From an uncultured Candidatus Saccharibacteria bacterium (lineage in GTDB: Bacteria; Patescibacteriota; Dojkabacteria; SC72): DNA of 30,440 bases. Positions 1,986 through 20,956 of this stretch are shown here, piece after piece. The position numbers were made by a program, and so were the translations under genes. Location: NCBI GenBank assembly GCA_964430365.1, contig CAYSEU010000002.1, positions 1-30,440 on the forward strand, written 5' to 3'. Numbering within the stretch: position 1 is the first letter of the stretch; each line of letters starts with the position of its first letter. Under the pieces are notes generated by a model, which worked only from the letters and a program-made list of their open reading frames with translations, ran no database searches and was not told where the DNA came from.

Positions 1986-2007
1986 CTTAATATTTTTAAC
2001 AATTTAT

Positions 2008-3225: not shown

Positions 3226-3257
3226 ATCAAAAATTTTAAAAGTAAGATCCAAAATCT

Positions 3258-3287
3258 ATTATATTCCCCTTAAGGATATAATTACAA
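3258..3287 (-). promoter_or_regulatory. sigma70-type promoter for the S41-HtrA pair
   Basis: TTGTAA (3287-3282), 18-nt spacer, TATAAT (3263-3258) on the minus strand. Confidence 0.55.
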
Positions 3288-4289: not shown

Positions 4290-5616
4290 TACCCCATATT
4301 CTTAATTTAACCCTATTCTCATGTGCGGATGGTCCATACACTATTGGCCTACTCCTCCCATCTACAACAAGATATTCATACTCTAGTATCTTTTTAGAAG
4401 ATATGTACTGTACCTGTTTAAATGGTAAATGAGAAAAAACAGTACCATTCTTTAGCTCTCCTTCTATTAGTAATTTTTCATCCCTTTGAGGAAGTTTAAA
4501 TATTTCTAAAGAAGAACCTAAGGAGTAAATCTCTTGTGGTTCTAACAGTTGAGAATATATCTTCGCAGAAAATATTATCTTACTCTTAGCCTTAGAAGGT
4601 ACCTCTGGTATTAGGAGTTTAATAGCTTTAGGTAATATATCTCCCTTAAGTACTACAATATTTTGAGACTCTTCTTTCTCAATCATGCTCTTCCCAAAGG
4701 TATACAGCTTACTATCCCTATCTATGAAGATATCAAATACTCCATCTAACTCTAATCCATCTATTACACAAAAGAGTAATTCCCTAAGTTGTAGTAAATT
4801 GGGGACTTTACCAGTAAGTATGATAGCTGTATTACTCTTACCAATTCTCTCATACTTTTTCCTATTACTCTGTTTAACAGAGAGTATTTGTAAGGTTGTA
4901 AATGCCCTAATTACATCACTTAGTAAAGAATCAGTAATATATTCATATCCATGTGCTATACAGTTAGCCCATCTATTTGAAATCTCTTCAGAGGATGAAT
5001 CTATAGAAAGAAAAGCATTTAACTTAGAACTCTTAACAAAATCTATTAACCCTATCTCATTACCCCAATCTATCTTAGAAGAAGAGAATCTTACATTCCC
5101 CTCTTTATTATTCTTACCTCTATATATCGAGAAATGAGAGAAATCTAAATCTAGCCATATGATATCATCATACTCTAACCTATCTACTAATCCCTTTATT
5201 AATACTTCCATATACCTATCATCTAATATCCTAAGTACAATATCCTTAGAAAACTCTTTTAAAGAAAAATATATGTTTTTAAAGAAAGCTTGATTATCAT
5301 CAACAACAACCTTAATACCGGATACCCCCATCTCTTCCCTTTCAAAATCCTTAACCCTAAAATCTTCACTCCACTCCCTATCTACAATATCCCAATCAAA
5401 TACTTTCTCTAAGGAATCAAAATATTCAAACCAGAAATTTTTAGTAAAAACACTATCATCTAATCTAAACTTCAAAGGAGAAAGGTCTGTTCTATCTGAA
5501 AGTATATATGTTTTTTGAGCAGAAAGATCTGTATATGCTAAATTAGCGTATATATAGTTATCTTTTATTAATATAGAAAGATATGCATTTTTCTTTAATA
5601 CAGGCAGTGTATCCAT
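4273..5616 (-). CDS. Divergent glutamate mutase L (GlmL/MutL, actin-like fold) family protein
   Basis: Segments IILTG...IDGLELDGVFDIFIDRD..L..FG and VVDGRSRP...RVKLRIW match the C-terminal signature of GlmL-like proteins as I recall it. Start set at ATG 5616 because the longer ORF runs into the rpsR terminator. Confidence 0.5.
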   Translation of the reverse strand: MDTLPVLKKNAYLSILIKDNYIYANLAYTDLSAQKTYILSDRTDLSPLKFRLDDSVFTKNFWFEYFDSLEKVFDWDIVDREWSEDFRVKDFEREEMGVSGIKVVVDDNQAFFKNIYFSLKEFSKDIVLRILDDRYMEVLIKGLVDRLEYDDIIWLDLDFSHFSIYRGKNNKEGNVRFSSSKIDWGNEIGLIDFVKSSKLNAFLSIDSSSEEISNRWANCIAHGYEYITDSLLSDVIRAFTTLQILSVKQSNRKKYERIGKSNTAIILTGKVPNLLQLRELLFCVIDGLELDGVFDIFIDRDSKLYTFGKSMIEKEESQNIVVLKGDILPKAIKLLIPEVPSKAKSKIIFSAKIYSQLLEPQEIYSLGSSLEIFKLPQRDEKLLIEGELKNGTVFSHLPFKQVQYISSKKILEYEYLVVDGRSRPIVYGPSAHENRVKLRIWGNGDKE

Positions 5617-5624
5617 TACAAAAT

Positions 5625-5633
5625 AGTTTACCA
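5625..5633 (-). promoter_or_regulatory. Extended -10 promoter 8 nt upstream of the GlmL-like ATG
   Basis: TGG-TAAACT-N8-ATG on the minus strand. Confidence 0.45.
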
Positions 5634-5648
5634 GTAAAAGAGAAATTT

Positions 5649-5677
5649 TAAAACAAAAAGAGGCCATAAGGCCTCTT
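5649..5677 (-). terminator. Rho-independent terminator of the rpsF-ssb-rpsR operon
   Basis: Perfect 8-bp stem AAGAGGCC-TTAT-GGCCTCTT followed by TTTGTTTT on the minus strand, about 20 nt after the rpsR stop. Confidence 0.85.
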
Positions 5678-5698
5678 AATTTTACTAACTAATTACAC

Positions 5699-6052
5699 TT
5701 AAACATCCTTAGCTACATATGGTAAAAGTGCCATGTATCTTGCTCTCTTAATTGCACTTTTCAATTGCTTCTGATGCTTATGACATGCCCCTGATTTCTC
5801 TACAGAGATTATCTTACCTCTCACAGATGTGAACTTCTTTAATTGATATACATCTTTGTATGACACACTCTTTACACCAGAATCACACAATGGACATGAA
5901 AGATTTTGTACAATCTTTCTTCTTCTTCTCTGTTTCTTCTTTCCACCGTAGGTATCATCACTCTCTTCTTCCGTAACTACCTTCTCATCAAAAACATCAT
6001 CCAAAGAAGGAGTAACTAAACTCTTCTTTTCTATTATTTTCCCTTCCTCCAT
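5699..6052 (-). CDS. rpsR: 30S ribosomal protein S18 (zinc-binding form) with acidic N-terminal extension
   Basis: CPLC...SYKDVYQLKKFTSVRGKI...GACHKHQKQLKSAIKRARYMALLPY; position after rpsF-ssb. Confidence 0.95.
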   Translation of the reverse strand: MEEGKIIEKKSLVTPSLDDVFDEKVVTEEESDDTYGGKKKQRRRRKIVQNLSCPLCDSGVKSVSYKDVYQLKKFTSVRGKIISVEKSGACHKHQKQLKSAIKRARYMALLPYVAKDV

Positions 6053-6071
6053 TACACAGTATTAATACAAA

Positions 6072-6539
6072 TTAAAATGGTAAATCAGTATCCTCTAAAG
6101 GATCTTCATCTGTAGCCTCTACCTCTGGGACCTCTTCCTCTACTTCTACTTCCTTTTCCTCAACTTCTTCTTTCTGTTCATCTAGACCTGCACCCTGCTT
6201 ACCTTTACTATCCAAAAGAATCATATCATCTACTCTAATCTCAGTTTTATACCTTGTAGAGCCATCCTCTGCTTCCCATGATCTGGTAGTGAGAGATCCT
6301 TCTACATATATCTTCATACCCTTTGCTAGTAACTGTTGGCATATTTCAGCCATCTTATTCCAAGCAACAATATTATGAAACTCTGCAACTTCCTTAGTCT
6401 CTCCATTTTGATCTTTCCAAGATCTATTAGTTGCTAAACCAAATGTTACTACTGGAGTTCCACCAGTGGTATATCTTAACTCTGGTTCCCTAGTTAAGTT
6501 ACCTATCAACTGAACTTTATTTAAAGACCTTGCTGACAT
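6072..6539 (-). CDS. ssb: Single-stranded DNA-binding protein
   Basis: LNKVQLIGNLTREPELRYT, EFHNIVAW, acidic tail ending DLPF. Confidence 0.97.
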   Translation of the reverse strand: MSARSLNKVQLIGNLTREPELRYTTGGTPVVTFGLATNRSWKDQNGETKEVAEFHNIVAWNKMAEICQQLLAKGMKIYVEGSLTTRSWEAEDGSTRYKTEIRVDDMILLDSKGKQGAGLDEQKEEVEEKEVEVEEEVPEVEATDEDPLEDTDLPF

Positions 6540-6603
6540 TTTTTTGTGTATATAAATTTAACTTACCTTTAATATTAACAGCCAAAGATTAAAAAATATT
6601 GAA

Positions 6604-6960
6604 CTAAACCTCTATCTCTTTTTTCTTTATACCCTTACCCACTAATGCTGGATTATCAACCTCTATTATCATAAACCTAAGTATCTCCTGCTTTAATTGT
6701 AATAACCTTTTCATCTCATTTATATTCTTAGGAGTATGTTTAAAGTTATAAACAATGTAATACCCTTCGTTATGACCATCTATTTTGTATGAGAGATATC
6801 TTTTACCCCATACATCTACATCTAAAACCTCTCCACCATCCTTACTCATGAGTTCTGTAAACTCCTTATGTATACTCTTTCTTAAATCATCAGGTAACAA
6901 AGGTTTAAGTGCTACCATTAACTCATATGTTTTTAATTTTACATCTCTTTCTATCAACAT
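6604..6960 (-). CDS. rpsF: 30S ribosomal protein S6
   Basis: KTYELMV, VDVWGKRYLSYKI, GYY, ILRFMI; first gene of rpsF-ssb-rpsR. The exact start is uncertain. Confidence 0.95.
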   Translation of the reverse strand: MLIERDVKLKTYELMVALKPLLPDDLRKSIHKEFTELMSKDGGEVLDVDVWGKRYLSYKIDGHNEGYYIVYNFKHTPKNINEMKRLLQLKQEILRFMIIEVDNPALVGKGIKKKEIEV

Positions 6961-6993
6961 CTAAATATATCTATATTTTAACTTAGCGAATGG

Positions 6994-7022
6994 ATTTTAT
7001 CAGAAAAAATCACAGATTACAA
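6994..7022 (-). promoter_or_regulatory. sigma70 promoter of rpsF-ssb-rpsR
   Basis: TTGTAA (7022-7017), 17-nt spacer ending in TGA, TAAAAT (6999-6994): both a -35 and an extended -10. Confidence 0.65.
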
Positions 7023-7027
7023 TTCTA

Positions 7028-8152
7028 TTAAGTATTAGCCAAAATTACAATATATTCACCATCCTTAACTATGTACTCTTTCCCATGATTCCTAATTAAA
7101 CCCTCCTCCTTAGCCCTATTCCATCCACCAATATCAATCATATCATCTACATTAACTACATCTGCTGTGATGAAGTTTTTACCTAGATCGGTGTGTATTA
7201 CACTAGCAGCACTCTTAATATTAGCACCATTTTCAATACTCCATGCGTTACACTCCTTTTCAGAACCAGTATAGAAAGTTATTAGATTTAACCTATGATA
7301 CGCACTCATAATGACATCTTCTACTGTAATAGGTTGTTTACCCAATAACTCTATATATTCATTTAACTCTTGCTCTTCCATACTAGCTAAATCAGAGAGT
7401 AATTTTACATCTACCTCTAATATATATGTGCGATCAGTATCACCAGATATCTCTCCTAATTGTTTCTTCCACTCTTCCATCTTTTCTTCTTCTAAACCCT
7501 CTTTACAGTTAAGTATAAATACCCTCTGCTTATTAGTAAGTAACCATAACTCCCTTACAATATCCCTTTGCTCACCTGTAAGCTTTATATCAATCGCTGG
7601 GATACCCTCATTTAACCCCTTAAGTACACTTTGAAGTGTATCTAACTCTAACTGCATTTCATCTGTTATACCTGGTCTAGAGTTCCTCTTAACCGTACCA
7701 TATCTCTTCTCTACACTCTCAATATCTTTAATTATTAATTCTGATTGAACAATCTCAAAATCATCTACTGGATCTACCCTGTTATACACATGTACAATCT
7801 CTTCACTTTTAAATGCTCTTAATACATAGAGTATTACATCTACCTCTCGAATATGAGAAAGGAACTGATTACCTAATCCTTCACCTTTAGATGCTCCCTT
7901 TACTAACCCTGCAATATCTACAAATGTCATTGCAGAGGGCACAACCTTTTGTGCTTTAAAAAAGCTTGCCATTCTCTCTAACCTCTTATCTGGTATCTCC
8001 ACTACTCCAACATTCTTATCTATCGTACAGAAGGGATAGTTTTGAGCAGGTACAGATTTTTTAGTCAATGCATTAAAAAGAGTACTCTTACCTGAATTTG
8101 GTAATCCAACAATACCTAGTGATAGTGTATGTGACCTTGTAACACTTTCCAT
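7028..8152 (-). CDS. ychF: Ribosome-binding ATPase YchF
   Basis: GIVGLPNSGKSTLFNALT, NYPFCTID, FVDIAGLVKGASKGEGLGNQFL, C-terminal TGS-like domain (ASVIHTDL...YIVKDGE). Confidence 0.96.
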   Translation of the reverse strand: MESVTRSHTLSLGIVGLPNSGKSTLFNALTKKSVPAQNYPFCTIDKNVGVVEIPDKRLERMASFFKAQKVVPSAMTFVDIAGLVKGASKGEGLGNQFLSHIREVDVILYVLRAFKSEEIVHVYNRVDPVDDFEIVQSELIIKDIESVEKRYGTVKRNSRPGITDEMQLELDTLQSVLKGLNEGIPAIDIKLTGEQRDIVRELWLLTNKQRVFILNCKEGLEEEKMEEWKKQLGEISGDTDRTYILEVDVKLLSDLASMEEQELNEYIELLGKQPITVEDVIMSAYHRLNLITFYTGSEKECNAWSIENGANIKSAASVIHTDLGKNFITADVVNVDDMIDIGGWNRAKEEGLIRNHGKEYIVKDGEYIVILANT

Positions 8153-8186
8153 TTCCTTTGTACTTACTTAATATTTTAAGATTCCA

Positions 8187-8195
8187 ATTATACCA
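8187..8195 (-). promoter_or_regulatory. Extended -10 promoter for ychF
   Basis: TGG-TATAAT on the minus strand, 34 nt upstream of the ATG. Confidence 0.55.
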
Positions 8196-8233
8196 CTTTC
8201 AAAGAGGTTAATTCTAAAGTAATATATCGGTAT

Positions 8234-10081
8234 ATGAAAATATACAAACTGCTCAGAAAAACATTTTTGTTTTTACCATTACTACTTCTCTTCTTAACAG
8301 ATATACGTGCTGTTACATATGATTTTGAATTCATTAATACAACAACAGTAAACTATACAACAGGTAAAGATTATGTTGATGTTAATACTCAATTTCTAAG
8401 GAAAGTAAATAACAGAGAGTACCTTTTCTCTACAAAAGGAGAGAAGATATTTCATATCCCAGATTCATCTTCAGGAAAAGATTATCAAATTGAGTTAGAA
8501 AGACAGTATAAATTAGATAGCTTAGAGGTAACTAGTAATACAGGAAGCAAGATACCATATACCGTAGAAAAATTAGAATTAGGACAGGGTATGTATATTA
8601 ATGTACCTAATTACAAAACAACAACATATGGTTCTGTATATGTTGTTAACCTTAATTACAAAACTCATATATATGTACACAATGTAAAAGATTGGGTAGC
8701 TATACAGATACCTGCTCTTCATGAAGACACAGAATTCACACAAAAGGATGAAGTTTCTGGTACCACTACTAAGATAGAGTACAACCTAAATATAATTACA
8801 GATGAGAATATTTCTCCAATATCAAAAATCTTTCCTTCTAAATATACTACATCAACAAACAATGACAAAAATATCTACTCCTTCGATGGAAAAGACAGGG
8901 TTGGTGTACCTGTATATATGGAATTTGGAACAGAGAGAGTCTTTAGATTTGAAACGAAATTAAAAACACCTAAAACAGATAATATTGTTCCTGAGAAATA
9001 TTCATCTGCTCTAAGTGCCCTCTCTACAAATATATATCAAGTACCGTTACCAAGAGAGTTTGCAGAGACTAATCAAAAAGTAATGATAGAGGATATATAT
9101 CCCCAACCTAGTAAGGTAACAATAGATTTGGAGGGAAATGTAGTTGGTACTTTTGAAGTACCAGCTAACAAAGATACTGAAATTCTCATATCTGGATATA
9201 TATGGTTAGAACAGAAGGAGTATGAAAATGTGAGAAGTATTCCTAATTTAGGATATTCTGAATACAAAAATCTTGTTAGAAACGATAGTAAACTATCTCA
9301 ATATCTATTACCTACAAAATATTGGGAATCAACAGACTCCTTTATACAATCTAAAGCATCTGAGCTAACAGATGGAAAAGAGAATTTCTTAGATGTTGTT
9401 AGAAGTACATATAGATATATAAATGAGGTATTAGAGTACGACAATACAAAAGCGGAGAGTAGTAATGAGAGAATTGGTGCAAAAGCAGCACTACAAGGAG
9501 GAGCTTCAGTATGTATGGAGTACTCTGACTCTATGATTGCCCTACTTCGTGCACAGGGTATTCCCTCAAGAGCTGCTGTTGGGTATGTTGGCATTGAGGA
9601 GAAAACAGAAGAGGAGAACATACCACATCAATGGGTACAGGTATGGGTACCAGAGTATGGATGGTTAAGTATAGATCCCTCATATGAAAGTATTAATATG
9701 CAAATTGGTAGTAATATTGATTCTGTACTTTGGGAAACCTTTTTTGATGATGACGAGACTAATCTAGGTGTATATACAGCAGATAGTATAGATTTAAGTA
9801 CATTTACAAAAGAAAACTACTCTATACAAGTATATGCCATAGATGAAAAAGATATACCTGAAATAGAGACCCTACTCTCATACAGTGATATAGTATCTGA
9901 GCAAGAAGATATGAATGTAAAAGATACTCTAAATATATTAGTAAAAACTACAACTATCGGAAAAGCTTTTATAATTATATTACCAATACTAGTAGTACTA
10001 ATATTATTAATATTGTTACTCTCCCTTATTACAGTATTAATTAGAAGAACTAGAACTCAAAAAATTTCTCAAAATCAATAG
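8234..10081 (+). CDS. Secreted, C-terminally membrane-anchored transglutaminase-like (Cys-His-Asp) protein
   Basis: Signal peptide (…LLLLFLTDIRA); catalytic motifs GGASVCMEYS..MIALLRAQGIPSR, HQWVQVW and GWLSIDPS; C-terminal TM followed by RRTR. Confidence 0.85.
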   Translation: MKIYKLLRKTFLFLPLLLLFLTDIRAVTYDFEFINTTTVNYTTGKDYVDVNTQFLRKVNNREYLFSTKGEKIFHIPDSSSGKDYQIELERQYKLDSLEVTSNTGSKIPYTVEKLELGQGMYINVPNYKTTTYGSVYVVNLNYKTHIYVHNVKDWVAIQIPALHEDTEFTQKDEVSGTTTKIEYNLNIITDENISPISKIFPSKYTTSTNNDKNIYSFDGKDRVGVPVYMEFGTERVFRFETKLKTPKTDNIVPEKYSSALSALSTNIYQVPLPREFAETNQKVMIEDIYPQPSKVTIDLEGNVVGTFEVPANKDTEILISGYIWLEQKEYENVRSIPNLGYSEYKNLVRNDSKLSQYLLPTKYWESTDSFIQSKASELTDGKENFLDVVRSTYRYINEVLEYDNTKAESSNERIGAKAALQGGASVCMEYSDSMIALLRAQGIPSRAAVGYVGIEEKTEEENIPHQWVQVWVPEYGWLSIDPSYESINMQIGSNIDSVLWETFFDDDETNLGVYTADSIDLSTFTKENYSIQVYAIDEKDIPEIETLLSYSDIVSEQEDMNVKDTLNILVKTTTIGKAFIIILPILVVLILLILLLSLITVLIRRTRTQKISQNQ

Positions 10082-11558
10082 CCTTAATACCATCTTCCAT
10101 TCTATCTTTAGTAGTAGCATATAGGGTCATTAGAGTATCTCCCTTTACTACCTTATCCCCTGGCATCTTATTAAAATATATACCAGCTTCTTTTATCTTT
10201 GGTGTACCCAATGATCTAGCAACTTCTACTATTTCTCTAGTACAGATGTTCTTTAGATCCCCGCTCTTTATAGACTTAACCTCATACGTAAGAGAACCGA
10301 GTTTAATATCAGAAGACTTAATCATTTTCTTCTCTCCCTGTGCTTTAGCTATATCCCAGAATTTCTTCAATGCTTTACCTGAATCTAATAGTTCTAGAGC
10401 AAATTTTTTACCCATACCCTTTTTAGCCTTACCATTGTTCTCAAATATAATAGATGCCATCTCTACCACTATATCTTCTAACTCCTCCGAACGTTTCTCA
10501 TCTCTTTCAAGTATCTTTAAACACTCCTTCATTTCTAAAAGAGGACCTACTCCATTACCATCTGGTCCCTTAACTATCCTTTTGTATGTTACACACTTTA
10601 TACCAAACCTATGGAAGAGTTTCTCAAATTCTCTACTTAAAAATTCCAGATCATCTGGCTTCTCTAATTTAGTACCCTTACCATATGGTAAATCTATTAG
10701 AACAAATGTAGAACCCATTGCTATTTTCTTAGCAACAATACTTACTAATACTTTCTGAAATTCCTGTATCCTTAAAGATCTCTCTACATTAATGATTTCA
10801 TCATCAGCAGGAGCTAAATAGAGTGAACCTCCCCATATCATACAAGCCCCTGTTTTCTCTACAACCTCATATACTTGCTCTTTAGTAAGTGACACTGGCA
10901 TTACACTCTCTATTATATCCGTGGTACCTGCTGGAGAAGTTATTGCCCTTGTAGAAGTATTAGGTACTACTAGACCACCTGCCGCTAATATTGGGACTAA
11001 GGTTGGAGTTATACCTTTACCTGCTGTTCCTCCTATTGAATGCTTATCAACTACCAATCCTTTATTATCTTTAATATATTTAAAGTCTAAAATCTCTCCT
11101 GATTGAGCCATGCCTTTTGTCATCCAAGTTATCTCATCGTCATCAAAACCTGGACTAAAGAAAGTAGCCACAAAAAATGCTACCTCCGTCTCCTTAAGCC
11201 TCCTAGACCCTATATCTTCCATAATGGAAAGTAATTCCTCCTCATTTAGCCTATGACCCGAGATCTTTTTCCTAAGAGCTTCAAGTGACTTAGTAGGAGC
11301 AGGGATATCAAGTAGTATCTTCCTACCCTCTGGGATATGATACTCATCCGTTAATTCCTCATACAGACCTACTTCTCCAATCTCTACCTCACTATCTGTA
11401 ATTATAACTTTTACGTAAAGTTCTATATCCTTAAAACCAAGTAAAAGGACCTCACCCTCTTTAACTCCTAAGTCATCCGCATCTTCACTATGCATCAAAA
11501 CAAACAAGTTCTTACCCGCTCCTAGATCAAATTTCTTACTCTTAAGGTATAGTGCCAT
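10050..11558 (-). CDS. AMP/NMP phosphorylase (archaeal-type thymidine phosphorylase family)
   Basis: About 85-aa N-terminal extra domain typical of AMP phosphorylases; DKHSIGG; TSTRAITSPAGTTD; SIVAKK; IDLPYG; adjacent to R15P isomerase. Confidence 0.9.
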   Translation of the reverse strand: MALYLKSKKFDLGAGKNLFVLMHSEDADDLGVKEGEVLLLGFKDIELYVKVIITDSEVEIGEVGLYEELTDEYHIPEGRKILLDIPAPTKSLEALRKKISGHRLNEEELLSIMEDIGSRRLKETEVAFFVATFFSPGFDDDEITWMTKGMAQSGEILDFKYIKDNKGLVVDKHSIGGTAGKGITPTLVPILAAGGLVVPNTSTRAITSPAGTTDIIESVMPVSLTKEQVYEVVEKTGACMIWGGSLYLAPADDEIINVERSLRIQEFQKVLVSIVAKKIAMGSTFVLIDLPYGKGTKLEKPDDLEFLSREFEKLFHRFGIKCVTYKRIVKGPDGNGVGPLLEMKECLKILERDEKRSEELEDIVVEMASIIFENNGKAKKGMGKKFALELLDSGKALKKFWDIAKAQGEKKMIKSSDIKLGSLTYEVKSIKSGDLKNICTREIVEVARSLGTPKIKEAGIYFNKMPGDKVVKGDTLMTLYATTKDRMEDGIKAIDFEKFFEF

Positions 11559-11575
11559 ATTTTTAATATTTTAAA

Positions 11576-12520
11576 TTAATCATTAAAAAGCCAAGTATAT
11601 TTAGCTTTAACAATATCATGTATCTCTTCTGGTTTAATAATACCAAATTCAGTCATAAAAGCAGTAATGAGTTTAGCATCAACTATCTCAAACGCAGGGT
11701 TATACATCTTAAGCTCTTTTGGTGCCTCACTCCATAATTCATCATCTTCACGAATTTCTATAGAAATATCTTTAGCTTTAATATATGGATCAACCTTTAA
11801 AAGCGGTGAAACTACATACAACGGTTTACTTGCTAAGTTAGCTGCCATACCTATACCCCAACTCCCAATCTTATTTATACAGTACCCATCTAGTGTAATC
11901 TGGTCACAACCGATAAAGATTGCATCTATAGGAATAGAGCCTCTACCAATAATGAAAGACTCAGCAGCACTATCCGCTATCATAGTGGTAGAAATACCGT
12001 CGTCTAGGAGACTTTTAGCAGTAGTTCTTCCCTGAAAAAGAGGTCTAGTCTCTGTACAAACAACATCAAACGAGCTACTTACTTCCCCTATCCCTTTTAA
12101 TATTGCTACAGCAGTAGATGAGTGACAGTGAGTAAGAACATTTTCAAAATGCTTAACATATGGAAGACCTAACTCTACTACACTTCGCTTAGAATCAGAT
12201 ATTTTAAATAGATACTCATCACAGTAATCTAATAGCTGTTGTTTCATATCATTAATGGAGTGTAAATCATCCTTCTTCTTTTTAAATAGATAAGCTACAT
12301 ACTTAACTCCATTTCTTGCTAATGGCTCATTTAATCTCGCATTAGCTAATTTGTTACCTACTCTTTCTAACTCATTGTAAAACAGCTCTTTATCTTGAAC
12401 ATTAGATTCTTCAATGAAAATCTTCATACCTTCTAATGTAGCAATGGCTACATTGGTGGCACCCTGTATGTTCAATTCTTTTATATCTTTTTCAATATCT
12501 AATATCTGTTTAACACTCAT
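11576..12520 (-). CDS. Ribose-1,5-bisphosphate isomerase (eIF-2B-like family)
   Basis: IQGA, LTHCHSS (catalytic Cys), ETRPLFQG, IGCD (catalytic Asp), INKIGS, NPAFE. ATG 12520 starts 1 nt after the MBL stop. Confidence 0.88.
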   Translation of the reverse strand: MSVKQILDIEKDIKELNIQGATNVAIATLEGMKIFIEESNVQDKELFYNELERVGNKLANARLNEPLARNGVKYVAYLFKKKKDDLHSINDMKQQLLDYCDEYLFKISDSKRSVVELGLPYVKHFENVLTHCHSSTAVAILKGIGEVSSSFDVVCTETRPLFQGRTTAKSLLDDGISTTMIADSAAESFIIGRGSIPIDAIFIGCDQITLDGYCINKIGSWGIGMAANLASKPLYVVSPLLKVDPYIKAKDISIEIREDDELWSEAPKELKMYNPAFEIVDAKLITAFMTEFGIIKPEEIHDIVKAKYTWLFND

Positions 12521-12521
12521 C

Positions 12522-13949
12522 TTACTTAAGATCAAACTCTTCGTTTAATTTAGGTATATCAACATCTACCCCAAGTTCAGATTTAATATTAGTACCGAAA
12601 CCAATAGCGATTTCTTCATCAGCATGTACAATGAAAATCCTTTTAGGAGAATGACCAAAACTTCTTAACCAATATCTTAGATCTCTTTGATCCCCATGAG
12701 CAGAAAATCCACCTAAGGTATGAATTTGTGCTTTAACCTGTAAAGTTTGTCCCATTACCCTTACTTCAGGACTTTTCTCTACAATCTTTCTACCTAATGT
12801 ACCCTCTACTTGATATCCAACAAATATCATATGAGTATTTTCCTTCTCAATATGGTTCTTAATATGATGTACTATTCTTCCTCCTGTACACATACCACTT
12901 CCAGCAATAATGACAACTCCCTTTTTTGATATTAATCTCTTAGATTCCTCAGCAGAATCAACTGCAACTAGCCCTGGGAAATGAAATGGATCATCTCCTT
13001 TTTCTAACAATCTTCTAGCATCTTCATCGTAGAAAGTAGGATACTGTTTAAAAACGGCAGTAGCTTTAGATGCCATAGGACTATCTAAATACACCTCTAA
13101 GTTATTTAATAGCTTGTTTTCAACAAACAGATTTATCTCATACAAGATTTCTTGGGTTCTTTCAATAGCGAAAGAAGGTATTAAAACATTACCACCCTCC
13201 TCCTGTGCCTGTTTTAATATGGAAAGTAATTCTAAGACAGTCTCATCCTTATTCTTATGCAACCTATTACCATATGTAGCTTCACATATTACATAGTCAG
13301 CCTCTCTTACTAAGTCTGGATCTCTTACAATTCTTGCACCAGGTTGCCCTAAGTCTCCACTAAAGACAATTTTTCTATCCCTACCCTCGGCTGTCTTTAT
13401 CCAAAACTCAATCATTGCGGAACCTAGTATATGTCCGGCATCTCTCATTCTAAATTCAACACCTTTCTTTAAATCAACAGATGAACCGTATGGGTATACA
13501 TCAAAGAGTTCGAGCATACCTTCTACATCTGTTTCAGAAAAAAGAGGCTTCCTCTCTGCATAGAGCGAACCTTCCTCTGAAAGATTCTTAGATGGTCTTT
13601 CCGTTTTACTTTTAGATTGCCATCTCTCATACTCCTCTTGTTGTAACTTCGCAGAATCTAACAACACAATCTTAGCTAAATCTCTAGTTGGTTGAGTACC
13701 AATAATACGACCCTTAAATCCCTGTTTAATAAGTATAGGAATTCTCCCACAATGATCATAGTGAGCATGTGTTAGAAATATAGCATCCAACTGAGTTGGA
13801 TCAAATGGGAAGGGCTCATAATTAAGTGTATTTAACTCATCTTTACCTTGGAAAGCACCACAGTCTACTAAAAATTTGTACGAACCGGTATCCACATAGT
13901 AACAGGAACCTGTAACTGTTCTGGCAGCTCCACAGAATTTCAATTTCAT
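12522..13949 (-). CDS. beta-CASP metallo-beta-lactamase family ribonuclease
   Basis: GAARTVTGS, THAHYDHCG, AGHILGS, FSGDLG, EATYG, PSFAIERTQE, AGSGMCTGGR, FSAHGD. Confidence 0.9.
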   Translation of the reverse strand: MKLKFCGAARTVTGSCYYVDTGSYKFLVDCGAFQGKDELNTLNYEPFPFDPTQLDAIFLTHAHYDHCGRIPILIKQGFKGRIIGTQPTRDLAKIVLLDSAKLQQEEYERWQSKSKTERPSKNLSEEGSLYAERKPLFSETDVEGMLELFDVYPYGSSVDLKKGVEFRMRDAGHILGSAMIEFWIKTAEGRDRKIVFSGDLGQPGARIVRDPDLVREADYVICEATYGNRLHKNKDETVLELLSILKQAQEEGGNVLIPSFAIERTQEILYEINLFVENKLLNNLEVYLDSPMASKATAVFKQYPTFYDEDARRLLEKGDDPFHFPGLVAVDSAEESKRLISKKGVVIIAGSGMCTGGRIVHHIKNHIEKENTHMIFVGYQVEGTLGRKIVEKSPEVRVMGQTLQVKAQIHTLGGFSAHGDQRDLRYWLRSFGHSPKRIFIVHADEEIAIGFGTNIKSELGVDVDIPKLNEEFDLK

Positions 13950-13982
13950 ATCAGGCAGTTAACAAAATTAATTATTCTAATA

Positions 13983-15395
13983 TTACAACATATGCTTAGC
14001 TTCATCCAACAATTTCTCTTTTGTATTCATTAAAGGATCCTCAATAACTATATCTAGTAATCTTTTTAATATACTTCCCATCTGAGGACCAGGTTTAACA
14101 CCAATACTTTGTAAATCCTCTCCCTTAATATCTAAGTCCGTAACCTTTAATACCATATCCTGTGCTCTTACCCTAGAAATATGTCTCTGTAACTCAGTAA
14201 TTTCCTCTGGTTGAAAAGGTGAATTAGGATTAGATGTAGCATCCGCTATTCTTAATTTAAAAAGGTCTTCAACATTCTCTTCCCCTACCCTATTTAAAAA
14301 TCTTCTAACAGCAGAATCACTCCACTGACTTAAAGAAATCTCTCCCTCTTTCTTACTTTCTAGTTGAGAATGAGGATAGTAGAACATATGGTTGCGAACC
14401 AATAGCTTAGTTCTCTCTATCTCCGATTTAGAAAACTTTAAACGCTTCATAATATCCTCAACCATTCCCATACCTACAACATCATGACCATAGAAATGAC
14501 CATTACCCATATCTGTTCTAGGTTTAGCAATATCATGTAGTAATGCAGCTAATTTAACAGAATCTTCGGCAAAATCACATGTTCTTAAACTATGTGTATA
14601 TACATCGTGAGCATGAAAGAGCTTCTGTTCAACACCATATCCCTCCAGTAACTCAGGAAGGAAGATATTTAACAGTCCTGTTTGTCTCATTAGCTCTATC
14701 CCCTTAGAAGGCTTAGGAGAATTTAAAAGTAATTTCATAAATTCGTCCCTAATTCTTTCCATAGATACCTGTTTCGCTATAGGTAAACTTTGCTTAATAG
14801 CATTGAAAGTCTCTCCCTCTATTTCAAAATCTAACTGAGAGGCTAATCTACAAGCCTTAAAAGCCCTTAAACCATCCTCTTTGAATCTTTCAATTGGTGT
14901 ACCTACAGCCCTAATTAATTTCATATTAATATCTGTAATACCACTAAAAGGATCATGTATATCCCACTCTCTTTCTACCTCTTCTCCATCTAAAAGGTCA
15001 GAAGAAAGATCCAGTGCCATGGCATTAATTGTGAAATCTCTCCTTCCTAAATCCTTATCCAAATCATTTACAAACTCTACCTTACTAGGCCATCTACCAT
15101 CTATATACTCCGCTTCACTTCTAAAAGTAGTAACCTCTACCTCTCTATTCTCACCATCAATATCTTCTACTAGAGCTATTACAGTGCCAAACTTTGCCCC
15201 AGTAGAAACAGCTTTAGGAAAAAGTTCTAACATCTCATCTGGAAGCGCATTAGTAGCTAAATCAAAATCATGGGGCTTTTTACCCATAACGATATCTCTA
15301 ATTGCTCCCCCAACAAGATATACATCATATCCTTCTTTAGAAAGTATTCTTGCTACCTTCTGTACATATTTGGGAATTGTAAACTTTATTTTCAT
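13983..15395 (-). CDS. cca: Class II tRNA nucleotidyltransferase (CCA-adding enzyme) with HD domain
   Basis: VGGAIRD...DFDLAT, EYIDGRWP flexible loop, RRDFTINA, EDGLR, HD domain (HDVYTH...LLHDIAKP). Start has an AAGGAG Shine-Dalgarno and an ATGA overlap with the upstream stop. Confidence 0.9.
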   Translation of the reverse strand: MKIKFTIPKYVQKVARILSKEGYDVYLVGGAIRDIVMGKKPHDFDLATNALPDEMLELFPKAVSTGAKFGTVIALVEDIDGENREVEVTTFRSEAEYIDGRWPSKVEFVNDLDKDLGRRDFTINAMALDLSSDLLDGEEVEREWDIHDPFSGITDINMKLIRAVGTPIERFKEDGLRAFKACRLASQLDFEIEGETFNAIKQSLPIAKQVSMERIRDEFMKLLLNSPKPSKGIELMRQTGLLNIFLPELLEGYGVEQKLFHAHDVYTHSLRTCDFAEDSVKLAALLHDIAKPRTDMGNGHFYGHDVVGMGMVEDIMKRLKFSKSEIERTKLLVRNHMFYYPHSQLESKKEGEISLSQWSDSAVRRFLNRVGEENVEDLFKLRIADATSNPNSPFQPEEITELQRHISRVRAQDMVLKVTDLDIKGEDLQSIGVKPGPQMGSILKRLLDIVIEDPLMNTKEKLLDEAKHML

Positions 15396-16567
15396 TTTAT
15401 TAATCTCCTTAATAGATAGTACCAAAGTAGAGGGAATACAACAAGAAAAGGAAACATATTAATACTTGTTTGGGGTAATTTTTTAATACCTAGAACTTCC
15501 CCACCACTCTCTTCTACCTCTATAAATACATCCTCCTGAGCTGTATCTTCCTCAATCTCTTCTAATATAATCTCTCCACTGTACAACGTATACGGTATTC
15601 TTGTAACACAGAAACTATCCATATGTGGCTTAACCCTTGAACCAATATATGATAGATATTCACTATCCTTTTCTCTTACACCCGCAACTATTACAGACTC
15701 TCCAACATAGTTAGATTCCATATGTTCACCTTTCACTGCACACTGTTGATTTTCGTTAGGATCATATATCCCTGCATACCCTAAATTTAAACTCTCCCCT
15801 ACCTCTAACTCATACTCATATATATATTCTTCGTTAGGATTAAAATCTCTTACTAACGAATACTGATTATGAGTAAAGACAGTATCTTTTAATGGAATAT
15901 CTGAATCGTTTCTTACATATACCCTTACTAAGACGGATTCCTCATTCCTTTGTGCTTCCCACTTTATAAACTGAAGGGCAGGTCTAACATATACCCTATC
16001 TAGTATCATTCCTCCATCAAATCCCCCTCCATTCTTAACTACTCCTACACCTGGATATGTCTTTACTATCCCATCTCTTGGATAGTTGTAGATTATATAT
16101 TTAATAGGGATACTCTCATACTCTCCATCTATATACAAAAGCTCTCTTAAATCTCCATTAGTAATATCCTGCTTGGAAAGTAATACCTTCAAGGAAGTAA
16201 CATTTATATCCTCCCCTACCCTATTCTCCGACCAATATATGAAATCTAAAGATGAGTATGGTGGAAGAGCAACCCTATCATACACATTCCAATTTCTAAC
16301 TAATCCATACCTCCAATCATCATCTGTTACATCTGAAATATTAATATGTGAAAGTATCCAACTACTACTAGTGCCTGAAACTTTAGATATGTCATACTCA
16401 ACACAGTTAGAACACTTTTCACTTTCTAAAAGATCTCCAATACCATATCCTAATGTATCAAAATACCTATTGTATGTAATATCTCCATCATTAGAGAAGT
16501 AAGAGTCTGCGAAAACAGTATTTATACATAAAAAGAGTAAAACAAAACAAAGTAAGATCTTTCTCAT
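15392..16567 (-). CDS. Secreted hypothetical protein with C-terminal LPxT-type sorting-like tail
   Basis: Signal peptide MRKILL...TVFA; acidic linker; EVLG..KLPQTS, then a hydrophobic stretch and RRLIK. Confidence 0.65.
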   Translation of the reverse strand: MRKILLCFVLLFLCINTVFADSYFSNDGDITYNRYFDTLGYGIGDLLESEKCSNCVEYDISKVSGTSSSWILSHINISDVTDDDWRYGLVRNWNVYDRVALPPYSSLDFIYWSENRVGEDINVTSLKVLLSKQDITNGDLRELLYIDGEYESIPIKYIIYNYPRDGIVKTYPGVGVVKNGGGFDGGMILDRVYVRPALQFIKWEAQRNEESVLVRVYVRNDSDIPLKDTVFTHNQYSLVRDFNPNEEYIYEYELEVGESLNLGYAGIYDPNENQQCAVKGEHMESNYVGESVIVAGVREKDSEYLSYIGSRVKPHMDSFCVTRIPYTLYSGEIILEEIEEDTAQEDVFIEVEESGGEVLGIKKLPQTSINMFPFLVVFPLLWYYLLRRLIK

Positions 16568-16624
16568 TAGATACCCAAACTTAATTTAGATATCTAATTT
16601 TAAAGAGTAAAGATTAAAAAGTAC

Positions 16625-17479
16625 TTAAATATTCCTTTCCCATTTTTTACGATCTATCCTATCTAACTCTAGACCTTTTTGAAGAATGCTAACTAAGATA
16701 ACTACAAACATAATTGCACTCACTCCAAATATTACAAAATCATACTGAGTTAACCAGTGTCCGTATACATCAAAATATTTAACAGGGAGAAAGAAAAGAA
16801 CGATAGTAAATATTATCCCTATTATCCTCATTTCAGTTGGACCAAATAGCCCAAATGAGTATTTAAATTCATTCTGAACATATGTTACTAATTCTACATG
16901 GGCCATTAAAACCAGATACATTATTCCAAAAAGCATAGCAATCTCTATCTTTACATATCCAGAGAGTCCTAACCCCAAACTAAATATTATTACAGCAACA
17001 CTATCAACAATATGATCTATGTAATACCCAAAGTTAGGCCTAGTCCTTTTCCTATACCTTGCTAAACTACCATCAAAGCTATCTCCAAACCAATTAAGAA
17101 ATAGCCCAATTATTACAAGCACAAGGTAGTAATGATTCATAAAACCTAAGATAAAACCCATTGCGGTCATAACATAGCCAATAATACCCAACCCTGTTAA
17201 AAGGTCTGGTGTAACCCACATAGGAATCCTTGGACATATCCACTCTTTAGCTTTCTCTTCCATATTAGCAGTAATGCCCGTATTTATTGCATTTTGATCA
17301 TCCCTTCTATACTCTACTTTCAACTTACTAATCTGTTCTCTAATTTCCCTTTCTAATGTTTTATTAAAACCCATTGTAACCCTATCTATAAATTCTTCGA
17401 CAGATTTAACATCAAAAATGTTAAATTCATGCTCATCTTTCTTCCTATTCTCATTCCCATTATTTTTTATTCCGAACAT
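16625..17479 (-). CDS. CDP-alcohol phosphatidyltransferase family protein
   Basis: Signature D-x2-DG-x2-AR-x8-G-x3-D-x3-D (DSFDGSLARYRKRTRPNFGYYIDHIVD); several TM helices; TPDLLT motif. Confidence 0.9.
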   Translation of the reverse strand: MFGIKNNGNENRKKDEHEFNIFDVKSVEEFIDRVTMGFNKTLEREIREQISKLKVEYRRDDQNAINTGITANMEEKAKEWICPRIPMWVTPDLLTGLGIIGYVMTAMGFILGFMNHYYLVLVIIGLFLNWFGDSFDGSLARYRKRTRPNFGYYIDHIVDSVAVIIFSLGLGLSGYVKIEIAMLFGIMYLVLMAHVELVTYVQNEFKYSFGLFGPTEMRIIGIIFTIVLFFLPVKYFDVYGHWLTQYDFVIFGVSAIMFVVILVSILQKGLELDRIDRKKWERNI

Positions 17480-17511
17480 CTATTTCAAACCTATTTAATT
17501 TAGATAAACAT

Positions 17512-17520
17512 ATTATATCA
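17512..17520 (-). promoter_or_regulatory. Extended -10 promoter for the phosphatidyltransferase gene
   Basis: TGA-TATAAT on the minus strand, 32 nt upstream of the ATG. Confidence 0.55.
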
Positions 17521-17805
17521 AATTCTGTCCATCAAGGGTCTGCCCTAGCCCTATCCCCATTCAGATTATTAACCATCTACAAATTCCACAATCTCAAGAA
17601 AACAAACCCAACCTTTATACCTAGCCAAAATCAACAAGATGGTAAAAAATAGTTTGTATTTTTGGTCGAAGAAACGCATAAAGGTTGTACCAAATATTGT
17701 TATAACAGTCTTTGTACTAGAAAAAGAGGGACAGATCTAGGACAAACCTCCTCTACTCTAATTTATTGATAACAGTATCTATACATGATAATTTATATAT
17801 TAGAG

Positions 17806-18417
17806 ATGAGATTAAAAGCACCTGCCCCATTGGGTGAAAGTGAAACAAAAAAACAGTCCTCTATCAATCAATCTACCCAGGTGTATCAAAATAACGAAAT
17901 AAAACAGAATATACTGCCCCCTACAACCCAAATAAACCTTAAATGGTTAAAACTTCCTAAAATAAATATACCTTGGTTAAAATTACCAAAGCTTAATATC
18001 CCCTCACAAAAAAAGAGAATGATAACAGAAATATCACTAATAGCAGTTCCCTCTCTTTTACTATTAATACTTACAATAATGATAATATCTTTCGTTAAAT
18101 CAGAACCATATAGAATGACAAGGGAATTCTTGGAGAAAATTGATAATGGAAATACCGTTGGAGCATATGATATGACTACTGATGCGTATAAATCTGCTAA
18201 GAGTTTAAAAGATTTTAAAGAGATAGTAAACAAACTAAACTCTGTAGATATATCCCACCCAGAAGAGAAAGATAGATATATAGAAGAAATACCTGGCATG
18301 GGACAGTATGCTCATGTAAAGTATAAAATCTCAGGATATTATGTTGATATTACTGTATTCAACGATAAAATAGATTGGGGGATACACTCTGTTACACTAT
18401 CTCTTATCAATCAGTAA
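17806..18417 (+). CDS. Single-pass membrane hypothetical protein with a small extracytoplasmic alpha/beta (NTF2-like?) domain
   Basis: Low-complexity N-terminus, one TM helix (ISLIAVPSLLLLILTIMIISF), then REFLEKIDNGNTVGAYD. ATG 17806 is preferred over 17785 because TTGATA-N17-TAATTT lies at 17766-17794. Confidence 0.6.
   Translation: MRLKAPAPLGESETKKQSSINQSTQVYQNNEIKQNILPPTTQINLKWLKLPKINIPWLKLPKLNIPSQKKRMITEISLIAVPSLLLLILTIMIISFVKSEPYRMTREFLEKIDNGNTVGAYDMTTDAYKSAKSLKDFKEIVNKLNSVDISHPEEKDRYIEEIPGMGQYAHVKYKISGYYVDITVFNDKIDWGIHSVTLSLINQ
17944..18003 (+). repeat. Imperfect 30-nt tandem repeat encoding WLKLPKINIP / WLKLPKLNIP
   Basis: tggttaaaacttcctaaaataaatatacct / tggttaaaattaccaaagcttaatatcccc. 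Confidence 0.75.
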
Positions 18418-19493: not shown

Positions 19494-19519
19494 ATTGAAA
19501 ATATCCTTATATTTAATGA

Positions 19520-19606
19520 CGGAGAGAGTGGGATTCGAACCCACGGTACGGAAACCCGTACAACGGTTTTCAAGACCGTCACTTTCGACCACTCAGTCAT
19601 CTCTCC
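19520..19606 (-). tRNA. tRNA-Ser (anticodon UGA), no encoded CCA
   Basis: Acceptor stem GGAGAGA/TCTCTCC, D-arm ACT..AGT, anticodon stem ACGGT-CTTGAAA-ACCGT, long variable arm GTACGG-GTTT-CCGTAC, T-arm GTGGG-TTCGAAT-CCCAC, discriminator G followed by TCA. Confidence 0.97.
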
Positions 19607-19616
19607 ATTGCCACAA

Positions 19617-19625
19617 ATTATATCA
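19617..19625 (-). promoter_or_regulatory. Extended -10 promoter for tRNA-Ser (and probably ddl)
   Basis: TGA-TATAAT 10 nt upstream of the tRNA 5' end. Confidence 0.65.
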
Positions 19626-19647
19626 TACTCATCTCTCATTTCCTTTA

Positions 19648-19676
19648 TTGACTAAACCGTATATCTTACATATCAT
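19648..19676 (+). promoter_or_regulatory. sigma70 promoter of the surface-protein cluster, leaderless geometry
   Basis: TTGACT (19648-53), 17-nt spacer, TATCAT (19671-76), 7 nt, ATG 19684. Confidence 0.7.
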
Positions 19677-19683
19677 CATATAT

Positions 19684-20877: not shown

Positions 20878-20880
20878 CTA

Positions 20881-20909: not shown

Positions 20910-20956
20910 GTATTATAGAAAATAAATATGAACTCTAATTTTTTAATCTGCCCAAT

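Follow-up and report, generated by a model that had tools for sequence, protein, structure and literature searches.

The stretch of DNA analysed in this work (30,440 nucleotides, hereafter the window) carried a Dojkabacteria cluster for pentose-bisphosphate (AMP/NMP) salvage, seemingly extended at its 5' end by the gene of a cytoplasmic TTHA0252-type RNase whose RNA-derived NMPs would feed the pathway, a reading that we consider evenly poised between right and wrong. The adjacency of the nuclease and the pathway genes suggests, without proving it, that this known pathway is supplied by the breakdown of RNA; both the products of the RNase and the flow of substrate into the pathway are what we infer. 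The preliminary description had reported three co-oriented and contiguous minus-strand open reading frames, which the ORF coordinates reproduced (Table 1), and its three gene identities and the Dojkabacteria (WS6, CPR) origin were supported by the Pfam, NCBIfam and PDB matches.

Table 1. Genes of the cluster and its 3' boundary (window coordinates).
Feature	Coordinates	Strand	Remarks
Beta-CASP ribonuclease, TTHA0252 type	12522..13949	(-)	475 aa; Pfam Lactamase_B, Beta-Casp, RMMBL
Ribose-1,5-bisphosphate (R15P) isomerase, putative (e2b2, IF-2B family)	11576..12520	(-)	314 aa from ATG
AMP (NMP) phosphorylase, deoA-type with extra N-terminal domain	10050..11558	(-)	502 aa
CCA-adding tRNA nucleotidyltransferase with HD domain	13983..15425	(-)	upstream neighbour of beta-CASP
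Transglutaminase-like membrane protein	8234..10081	(+)	convergent; 3' boundary of cluster; Pfam Transglut_core 1.2e-19

The beta-CASP stop codon (TAA, 12524-12522) was followed after 1 nt by the e2b2 ATG at 12520, a gap replaced by an overlap if the alternative e2b2 start (TTG at 12535) is taken; the e2b2 stop codon (11578-11576) was followed by the deoA ATG at 11558, 17 nt downstream. The CCA gene lay 33 nt before the beta-CASP start on the same strand; it matched Pfam PolyA_pol, PolyA_pol_RNAbd, HD and tRNA_NucTran2_2, and scored 277 and 269 bits with NCBIfam CCA tRNA nucleotidyltransferase models, below their cut-offs. At the other end, the 3' end of deoA was overlapped by 32 nt by the convergent transglutaminase-like gene, a syntenic neighbour found at the same position in loci of types A, B and C (see below) and not proposed as a pathway member. 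A scan of positions 9800-17900 detected no intrinsic-terminator-like site in the intergenic gaps of 33, 1 and 17 nt; promoter-like sites were fewer there than in shuffled sequences, and the scan was uninformative on promoters. A sediment metatranscriptome held contigs that match each of the four genes at 80-95% identity, and some contigs of relatives crossed the bCASP/e2b2 and CCA/bCASP junctions; carried-over DNA may be included among both. A search for RNA runs with sequence identical at the DNA level to the window found none. CCA, bCASP, e2b2 and deoA may be co-transcribed, the CCA gene probably belonging to the same transcription unit as the other three.

The structural criteria for an R15P isomerase, namely an IF-2B fold, a closer relation to these enzymes than to MtnA or eIF2B subunits, and aligned catalytic Cys and Asp residues, were all found in the e2b2 product: Pfam IF-2B matched at 5e-56, the best PDB matches were the R15P isomerases 5YFJ (2e-37) and 3A11 (4e-35), ahead of the best MtnA (4e-27), and the cysteine of its THCHS and the aspartate of its GCD motif aligned with the archaeal THCHS and GAD. 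Scores were below the cut-offs for TIGR00511 (178.5 bits, equivalog cut-off 314.1) and TIGR00524 (182.9 bits, cut-off 185.85). The protein is a putative divergent R15P isomerase, assigned by its structure matches and gene context. An AMP phosphorylase was defined by a thymidine-phosphorylase fold, an extra N-terminal domain of ~85-90 residues and TK0353 as the closest relative, and the deoA product showed this pattern: it matched Pfam Glycos_trans_3N (starting only at residue 93), Glycos_transf_3 and PYNP_C, and its best PDB match was the Thermococcus kodakarensis AMP phosphorylase 4GA5 (9e-88; residues 10-491 against 8-481), an alignment including the N-terminal domain. TIGR03327 (AMP_phos) scored 434.9 bits, below its equivalog cut-off of 535; the subfamily model NF003338 was just passed (435.4 bits, cut-off 434). 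AMP phosphorylase also takes CMP and UMP.

The third protein matched, together with Lactamase_B, Pfam Beta-Casp (2.6e-37, 128 bits) and RMMBL (3.4e-16, 59 bits). The marks of a beta-CASP nuclease, MBL motifs 1-4 (D; HxHxDH; H; D) and motifs A (D/E), B (H) and C (H), were present as H61-x-H63-x-D65-H66 and the remaining motif residues; in a family alignment of 20 sequences H61, H63, D65, H66, H173, D199, E223, H418 and H442 were invariant and D29 nearly so. A TTHA0252-type enzyme was taken to have ~430-480 aa, a core of MBL, beta-CASP and RMMBL only, and TTHA0252 as its nearest relative; the window protein, at 475 aa, had the TTHA0252 RNase as its best solved relative (8e-92, PDB search). Relatives of 440-480 aa and 37-47% identity were spread over many phyla. 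KH domains, an RNase J C-terminal domain and a signal peptide were absent from the window nuclease. Its N-terminus aligned from position 1 of the profile of cytoplasmic relatives and, because there was no N-terminal extension, the nuclease looks cytoplasmic. With neither signal peptide nor extension, the earlier idea that scavenged or host RNA is the substrate was left unsupported.

TTHA0252 from Thermus thermophilus HB8 (PDB 2DKF, 3IEK-3IEM) has the same two-domain architecture and likewise lacks KH domains and the C-terminal domain of RNase J; its identity to the window protein was roughly 40%, as judged via relatives at about 40% identity, and the window protein differs by an insert of ~30 residues after its residue 100. 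TTHA0252 is reported to be a 5'-3' exo-RNase, probably also an endo-RNase, which is non-essential and takes part in mRNA decay on a global scale (PMC4229858). By analogy, exonucleolytic 5'-to-3' action and 5'-NMP release are predicted for the window nuclease, and this closest characterised relative agrees with the preliminary statement that beta-CASP enzymes can yield 5'-NMPs. The literature examined gave no sign that TTHA0252 is connected with genes of nucleotide catabolism.

RNase J and the archaeal aCPSF1/FttA share the beta-CASP superfamily, the metal-binding motifs and RMMBL with the window protein. An RNase J identity was rejected: no RNase J model was among the NCBIfam matches at E <= 1e-5, and RMMBL, which reaches residue 466 of the 475, is the last domain of the protein. 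The aCPSF1 model was matched at its catalytic core only (positions 282-629 of 631; score 313, below the cut-off of 580), so the aCPSF1 KH domains are absent. The NCBIfam model with the highest score (408 bits) was that of Cas14, the nuclease of type VII CRISPR-Cas and likewise a beta-CASP enzyme; among the PDB matches, Cas14 structures ranked second as a group (8YHD, 1e-66). A type VII CRISPR reading was discarded: the Cas14 cut-off is 800, only profile positions 1-434 of 612 were matched, which indicates that the Cas14 C-terminal part is missing, and there was no cas context (no cas genes in Pfam scans of the larger ORFs of the window). The Cas14 resemblance is shared ancestry of the nuclease core.

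This architecture also bears on a narrower, pathway-linked substrate: the enzyme might convert nanoRNA or nucleotide derivatives to NMPs, or process or destabilise the mRNA of its own operon as a form of regulation. Tight operon membership would suit such a role, as would the use of small nucleotides by other MBL-fold enzymes and a Pfam Anti-Pycsar_Apyc1 signal on the nuclease; that signal, however, was faint and lay beneath the general MBL domain, and the full beta-CASP and RMMBL RNA-specificity architecture and the high similarity to the polymer-degrading TTHA0252 make this explanation quite unlikely.

Linkage of the nuclease to the pathway was followed in 31 Dojkabacteria lineages, defined as clusters at 90% beta-CASP identity. 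In all 31 the beta-CASP gene was the immediate neighbour of e2b2, RbcL or deoA. The two lay -4 to 160 nt apart in 30 of the lineages, the exception having a gap of 1333 nt (median about 6 nt). Four gene orders were distinguished: type A, that of the window (CCA-bCASP-e2b2-deoA), type B (CCA-bCASP-e2b2-RbcL-deoA), type C (CCA-bCASP-RbcL-e2b2-deoA) and type D (deoA-bCASP, with e2b2 1.7-6.8 kb away). The same pattern was seen from the side of the phosphorylase: among 80 loci of an AMP phosphorylase-centred metagenome scan, the beta-CASP gene was present in 26 of the 26 with a deoA of at least 44% identity and enough flank (7 further loci in this identity range end before the beta-CASP position) and in none of the 47 with a deoA of 43% identity or less. 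Recurring in 31 lineages and four orders, the adjacency is more than chance. One 769-aa ORF of lineage L113 was considered as a RuBisCO-isomerase fusion and rejected; its N-terminal 430 residues were S/N/D-rich, of low complexity and matched no family, and the ORF was therefore probably called too long.

Part of this conservation is inertia, and the four orders are permutations of one neighbourhood and not independent assemblies. The nuclease could accordingly be a housekeeping RNA-decay or processing RNase, maybe paired with the CCA enzyme in tRNA 3'-end maturation or repair, and held in place by synteny frozen in a genome that is small and rearranges slowly. The gene next upstream was CCA in 24 of these 31 lineages, and the block CysS-RNase HII...CCA...YchF-S6-SSB-S18 was syntenic across types A-C and is ancient in these small genomes; the function of TTHA0252 in mRNA decay (PMC4229858) and the occurrence of the family as a stand-alone gene with variable neighbours across many phyla point the same way. 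The spacers, however, speak for the pathway side: the CCA-bCASP interval was loose (between 22 and 2254 nt depending on the lineage; in L113 it holds inserted genes), whereas the interval between bCASP and the pathway genes was tight. Insertions likewise fell in the flanks (the RNase HII/CCA interval and the interval between the transglutaminase gene and YchF), and only in L113 did one separate the nuclease from the pathway genes. In type D, moreover, the nuclease had kept its adjacency to deoA, 1-160 nt downstream of it, and had lost the CCA gene (none within 8 kb) and direct adjacency to e2b2, with unrelated genes inserted on its other side. The CCA gene, with its varying gap to beta-CASP and its absence near type D, is a looser member of the cluster than the other genes. 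On balance, a purely housekeeping role is a credible but rather doubtful explanation.

Outside Dojkabacteria the association disappeared. Among 78 loci of the TTHA0252-like family in other phyla, 77 had no link to the pathway, e2b2 was a neighbour in none, an AMP phosphorylase/deoA-like neighbour occurred in one (L021), and no recurrent neighbour was found; conversely, a beta-CASP gene was absent from the AMP-pathway operons of three other lineages (L144, L157 and L167). In one gammaproteobacterial MAG, AMP phosphorylase-like, PRPP-synthetase-like and beta-CASP genes stood in a row, the last two 3 nt apart, a separate instance that speaks for the link. As the family is widespread and was unlinked in 77 of 78 loci, its ancestral role is general RNA metabolism. 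The conserved linkage that the preliminary description had named as a check held within Dojkabacteria, more strongly than expected, but is not a property of the whole beta-CASP subfamily.

No RuBisCO was found in the window, either by Pfam on the ORFs or by a custom HMM at E <= 1. Several Dojkabacteria lineages (type B order) carried a catalytically intact RuBisCO within the cluster. Four look-ups seeded with RuBisCO proteins chosen independently of the nuclease all reached type B clusters, and the RuBisCOs of these look-ups kept 14 of the 14 canonical catalytic residues checked; the in-operon RuBisCOs shared 53-64% identity with a sequence that carries the label Form III-c. In the beta-CASP tree the clade of the window (clade A) was nested among type B lineages; since these carry RuBisCO, clade A has apparently lost the gene from between e2b2 and deoA in its operon. 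A protein search seeded with an odd RuBisCO-like gene of L121 returned 52 proteins, none tied to clade A, and two long-form RuBisCO matches (P0388 and P0394) were dismissed as Dojkabacteria candidates, both being on archaeal contigs. The "III-like" RuBisCO of 33%-GC WS6 genomes has been described as missing catalytic residues and without detectable activity (Wrighton et al. 2016, PMC5113843).

The pathway of T. kodakarensis comprises the AMP phosphorylase TK0353, the R15P isomerase TK0185 and the form III RuBisCO TK2290 (Sato 2007; Aono 2012, 2015, as cited in PMC12628685). Its phosphorylase (4GA5) and the isomerases 3A11 and 5YFJ were the best structure matches of the two window enzymes. The three archaeal genes are dispersed, and they are not known to have a nuclease gene associated. 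Dojkabacteria, unlike T. kodakarensis, have one operon-like cluster that includes a beta-CASP RNase, and RuBisCO is missing from it in the clade of the window. The AMP-pathway clusters of CPR bacteria that have a form III-c RuBisCO (Jaffe et al. 2019, PMC6389311) agree with the Dojkabacteria cluster in phylum, in pathway and in having consecutive deoA, e2b2 and RuBisCO genes. RNA-derived ribose had already been proposed as a carbon and energy source of WS6 (Wrighton et al. 2016, PMC5113843); the suggestion of the preliminary description that RNA serves in this way through the pathway therefore has a published precedent and is not new. The words "nuclease", "lactamase" and "operon" are absent from PMC6389311 and PMC5113843, neither of which mentions a nuclease or metallo-beta-lactamase neighbour, and a conserved RNase member of the cluster was not found in the searchable literature. 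What is new with respect to these two papers is the conserved RNase member and, in one large clade, an operon that has apparently lost RuBisCO.

In the favoured reading, that of a salvage cluster fed by the RNase, the enzyme would degrade intracellular RNA, either the products of the cell's own turnover or imported oligonucleotides, to 5'-NMPs. RNase J-type exoribonucleases release 5'-NMPs, the class of compound on which AMP phosphorylase acts; any exoribonuclease would give NMPs. AMP phosphorylase would then convert NMP and phosphate to the base and ribose-1,5-bisphosphate, and the isomerase would convert the latter to ribulose-1,5-bisphosphate (RuBP). In sister lineages, RuBisCO, present in their operons and not in the window, would yield two 3-phosphoglycerate; in the window organism the sink could be a RuBisCO encoded at some other site in the genome, or a different route that consumes RuBP. 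For the feeding of NMPs to the pathway by the nuclease, as originally proposed, the gene identities, the packing and the linkage in Dojkabacteria stood, but host RNA as the source and a subfamily-wide link did not. A bolder version, which we put forward as possible and tentative, would see a dedicated four- or five-gene RNA-to-3-phosphoglycerate operon of beta-CASP RNase, AMP phosphorylase, R15P isomerase and RuBisCO, in which the RNase was recruited from housekeeping decay as the committed first step; these symbionts would then draw on polymeric RNA as a principal source of carbon and energy, and the role of RuBisCO in them would be RNA catabolism.

The AMP/pentose-bisphosphate pathway accounts for RuBisCO without a Calvin cycle in many CPR bacteria and archaea. 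In the large Dojkabacteria clade that includes the window organism, the apparent loss of RuBisCO from the cluster, with the other three genes intact, shifts attention to which reaction consumes RuBP. If the link were synteny alone, the gene would still be marked as the TTHA0252-type housekeeping RNase of the lineage. The source of nucleotides for the pathway in minimal symbionts has so far been guesswork only, and an RNase gene that keeps its place beside deoA, e2b2 and RuBisCO throughout a class-level lineage offers a definite candidate for the upstream step that was missing.

The window is AT-rich (30-40% GC) and almost every gene from 825 to 19600 is carried on the minus strand. The preliminary description of three co-oriented, contiguous ORFs, encoding a beta-CASP RNase, a ribose-1,5-bisphosphate (R15P) isomerase (e2b2) and an AMP phosphorylase (AMPpase, deoA), proved accurate when stop and start positions were checked: the e2b2 ATG lies one base past the RNase stop codon (an alternative upstream start, TTG at 12535, was also listed), and deoA begins 17 nt downstream of the e2b2 stop. 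The remaining genes encode housekeeping proteins (YchF, S6-SSB-S18, Ddl, CysS, RNase HII, RecR, YbaB, DnaX, proteases) and several hypothetical proteins. Consensus scanning found the intergenic gaps free of terminators and yielded no promoter signal of use.

Coordinates of the RNase/pentose-bisphosphate cluster and its flanking genes (window positions).
Feature	Position	Strand	Details
Transglutaminase gene, convergent	8234-10081	+	32-nt overlap with the deoA end
AMP phosphorylase, deoA	10050-11558	-	502 aa
R15P isomerase, e2b2	11576-12520	-	314 aa counted from the ATG; stop 11578-11576
Beta-CASP RNase	12522-13949	-	475 aa; stop TAA 12524-12522
CCA-adding enzyme, HD domain	13983-15425	-	gene upstream of the RNase, ending 33 nt ahead of it

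The nuclease carries the Pfam domains Lactamase_B, Beta-Casp and RMMBL, and its nearest solved structure is TTHA0252, a Thermus thermophilus RNase (8e-92), followed by Cas14, archaeal CPSF1/FttA, CPSF73 and INTS11. In NCBIfam, the top model was Cas14 (408 bits vs. a cut-off of 800, over profile positions 1-434 of 612 only), the aCPSF1 model matched in the catalytic core only (313 bits vs. 580), and RNase J models gave no match. In an alignment reaching relatives of 39% identity, no metal-binding or beta-CASP motif residue varied. Matches to the NCBIfam profiles start at position 1, so the protein has neither a signal peptide nor an N-terminal extension; it is predicted to be a cytoplasmic TTHA0252-type RNase. 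The preliminary description had it supplying NMPs from scavenged or host RNA, but with no export signal in the enzyme, there is no indication that it acts on RNA of a host or outside the cell. TTHA0252 itself is reported to be a non-essential 5'-3' exo-RNase, probably also an endo-RNase, which affects global mRNA levels (PMC4229858). Cas14, the type VII CRISPR nuclease, was also the top NCBIfam model for a gammaproteobacterial homologue (379 bits); from these matches, the nuclease core of Cas14 appears to have its closest non-CRISPR relatives among TTHA0252-type RNases.

The e2b2 protein, of the IF-2B family, is nearest to the Pyrococcus and Thermococcus R15P isomerase structures, with MtnA behind, and keeps the catalytic Cys and Asp. 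The deoA protein is nearest to the T. kodakarensis AMP phosphorylase across its whole length, N-terminal domain included. Both scored under the NCBI equivalog cut-offs, which points to divergent members of their families.

Identical nuclease copies were present in contigs of one hydrocarbon metagenome and three other samples, and the nearest named relatives (95-83% identity) belong to MAGs of candidate division WS6/Dojkabacteria whose names contain “33” (% GC). At nuclease identities of at least 66% the entire neighbourhood is common (CCA-adding enzyme, RNase, e2b2, deoA, convergent transglutaminase gene, YchF, S6-SSB-S18), though synteny among such close relatives proves little by itself. In a nuclease-centred scan of 80 loci, one genome per species, e2b2 and deoA adjoined the nuclease in two, both Dojkabacteria-like; in the other 78 (nuclease identity 37-47%; Firmicutes, Proteobacteria, Chloroflexi, Aquificae, one Parcubacterium and archaea) e2b2 was absent, no recurrent nuclease neighbour was common, and the sole AMPpase-like neighbour was found in L021, a gammaproteobacterial MAG locus. 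A second scan, centred on AMP phosphorylase in metagenomes, comprised 80 loci with deoA identity from 91% down to 35%. The nuclease was present in all 26 loci with deoA identity of at least 44% and sufficient flank (seven further loci at this identity were on contigs ending short of the nuclease position), and in none of the 47 at 43% or less, including three e2b2-(RbcL)-deoA operons from other lineages (L144, L157, L167; RbcL being RuBisCO). Conserved linkage of nuclease and pathway genes holds within Dojkabacteria (31 of 31 lineages, as defined below) but not in other phyla (77 of 78 loci unlinked).

In L021 (7547-11389 of CAWDUG010000005.1), an AMPpase-like phosphorylase (TIGR03327, 501 bits; ARCH_P_rylase, 617 bits), a PRK07199-type ribose-phosphate diphosphokinase (PRPP-synthetase-like) and a TTHA0252-type beta-CASP gene are consecutive, with gaps of 19 nt and then 2-3 nt before the beta-CASP gene. 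This is an independent association of the TTHA0252-type RNase family with an NMP-phosphorylase-like enzyme, in which the PRPP-synthetase-like partner replaces R15P isomerase; the trio is missing in the nearest beta-CASP relatives (L051, L052, L086).

Beyond the window's order (type A, CCA-RNase-e2b2-deoA), three others were found. L118 has CCA-RNase-e2b2-RbcL-deoA (type B) and L115 has CCA-RNase-RbcL-e2b2-deoA (type C), every gap being 2-32 nt; in L116 and L120 the nuclease lies directly 3' of deoA (gaps of 1 and 17 nt). When the L116 nuclease served as a protein query, this second clade likewise proved to be labelled Dojkabacteria, and three of its long contigs, including the 1.09 Mb CP129477.1, share the order Rho...deoA-RNase-M23 peptidase-(0-2 genes)-e2b2...YchF, with no CCA gene within 8 kb (type D). 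Four RuBisCO proteins picked irrespective of the nuclease as entry points all landed in CCA-RNase-e2b2-RbcL-deoA-(transglutaminase)-YchF clusters (4 of 4). The type B flanks correspond to the window gene for gene: DnaX-YbaB-RecR-...-CysS-RNase HII upstream, S6-SSB-S18 and an S41 protease downstream. Between the CCA gene and RNase HII (23945-24847), the window has about 8.5 kb extra with respect to type B relatives (15400-23950), containing a CDP-alcohol phosphatidyltransferase, a D-Ala-D-Ala ligase, a tRNA-Ser(TGA) and a plus-strand block (19330-23948) of four large ORFs with no Pfam match; at the matching position L177, a related locus, has an ABC ATPase alone.

Co-expression of a cytoplasmic RNase with the NMP-degrading enzymes, which it feeds with mononucleotides, is the best-supported explanation, and we give it about an even chance. 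The mononucleotide products of the RNase would enter the pentose-bisphosphate pathway. Product and substrate would match because TTHA0252 is reported to be an exonuclease, 5'-NMPs are the products of beta-CASP 5'-3' exoribonucleases, and AMP, CMP and UMP are all substrates of archaeal AMPpase. Alternatively, the nuclease might simply serve RNA housekeeping in this lineage, its gene belonging to a block of ancient synteny, and might act on tRNA ends jointly with the CCA enzyme; we hold this as a tentative, less probable alternative, in keeping with the wide distribution of the family as a stand-alone gene and with the four gene orders being permutations inside one neighbourhood rather than independent assemblies. 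The type D rearrangement and the spacing of the genes argue against it. When loci were collapsed at 90% nuclease identity into 31 lineages, e2b2, RbcL or deoA was the immediate nuclease neighbour in all 31, at -4 to 160 nt in 30 lineages and at 1333 nt in L113, whereas the spacer between CCA gene and nuclease ranged from 22 to 2254 nt and the CCA gene was missing in type D loci; by this measure, linkage of the nuclease gene to the pathway genes is tighter than to the CCA gene. The feeding and housekeeping roles could partly coexist: if the lineage had a single exoribonuclease, for housekeeping, its activity would supply the pathway in any case, and a place in the operon would signify co-regulation only. 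In L113, a low-complexity, S/N/D-rich stretch of about 1.3 kb (5518-6807) has an open frame continuous with e2b2 and no family matches; it reflects either an ORF called too long or an N-terminal extension of the isomerase that is disordered.

In a neighbour-joining tree of the nuclease, types A-D form one Dojkabacteria clade, with type D sister to C, B and A jointly, the RuBisCO-less type A (window) nested inside, and L118 outside on a long branch. No RuBisCO was present among the window ORFs. The in-operon RuBisCOs of the clusters reached from the four RuBisCO entry points keep 14 of 14 canonical active-site residues checked; their identity to a sequence labelled Form III-c is 53-64%. Where L177 carries RuBisCO between e2b2 and deoA (9962-11331), the window has a 17-nt spacer (11559-11575) with no pseudogene remnant. 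The simplest reading is that the ancestral cluster comprised nuclease, e2b2, RbcL and deoA, and that the window's clade later deleted RbcL, cleanly since just 17 nt remain. WS6 genomes of 33% GC have been listed with “III-like” RuBisCO, and recombinant WS6 RuBisCO proteins, missing catalytic residues, had undetectable carboxylase activity (Wrighton et al. 2016, PMC5113843).

Both e2b2 and deoA are well conserved across the RuBisCO-less clade, which argues for some RuBP sink there. By analogy with haloarchaea, in which a non-carboxylating route from RuBP exists (PMC12628685), such a route is an alternative candidate sink in the window's organism. In L144, from outside Dojkabacteria, a HAD-family hydrolase (5977-6603) between isomerase and RuBisCO recalls the RuBP phosphatase of that route. 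In another locus, L121 (1-2501), the gene immediately 5' of deoA (42% identity to the window deoA) is RuBisCO-like. Its product has lost K175, K177, K201, D203, E204, G403 and G404 (local sequences RPC... and DIILDHPAL) and shares only 48% identity with the nearest relatives; this may be a RuBisCO-like protein whose function has changed, in an AMP-pathway setting.

No RNA runs containing the window itself were found. In one sediment metatranscriptome (run X15), short contigs 80-95% identical to deoA, e2b2, nuclease and CCA genes (window 9800-15600) included some across the nuclease/e2b2 junction (12380-12538, 12517-12743) and across the CCA/nuclease junction (13930-14089). These fit co-transcription in relatives, or may alternatively be DNA carry-over; they suggest that related Dojkabacteria express the cluster in situ, with carried-over DNA as the other possible source.

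The pathway itself, including its presence in Dojkabacteria, and RNA-derived ribose as fuel for these cells were already published. In a limited literature search, no paper combining beta-CASP and AMP phosphorylase was found; a nuclease or lactamase-fold neighbour is never mentioned in Wrighton 2016 (PMC5113843) or Jaffe 2019 (PMC6389311), nor is the link drawn in a survey of CPR genes of the MBL fold. What appears to be new here is a conserved RNase member of the pentose-bisphosphate operon and, in one clade, the apparent loss of RuBisCO from it.
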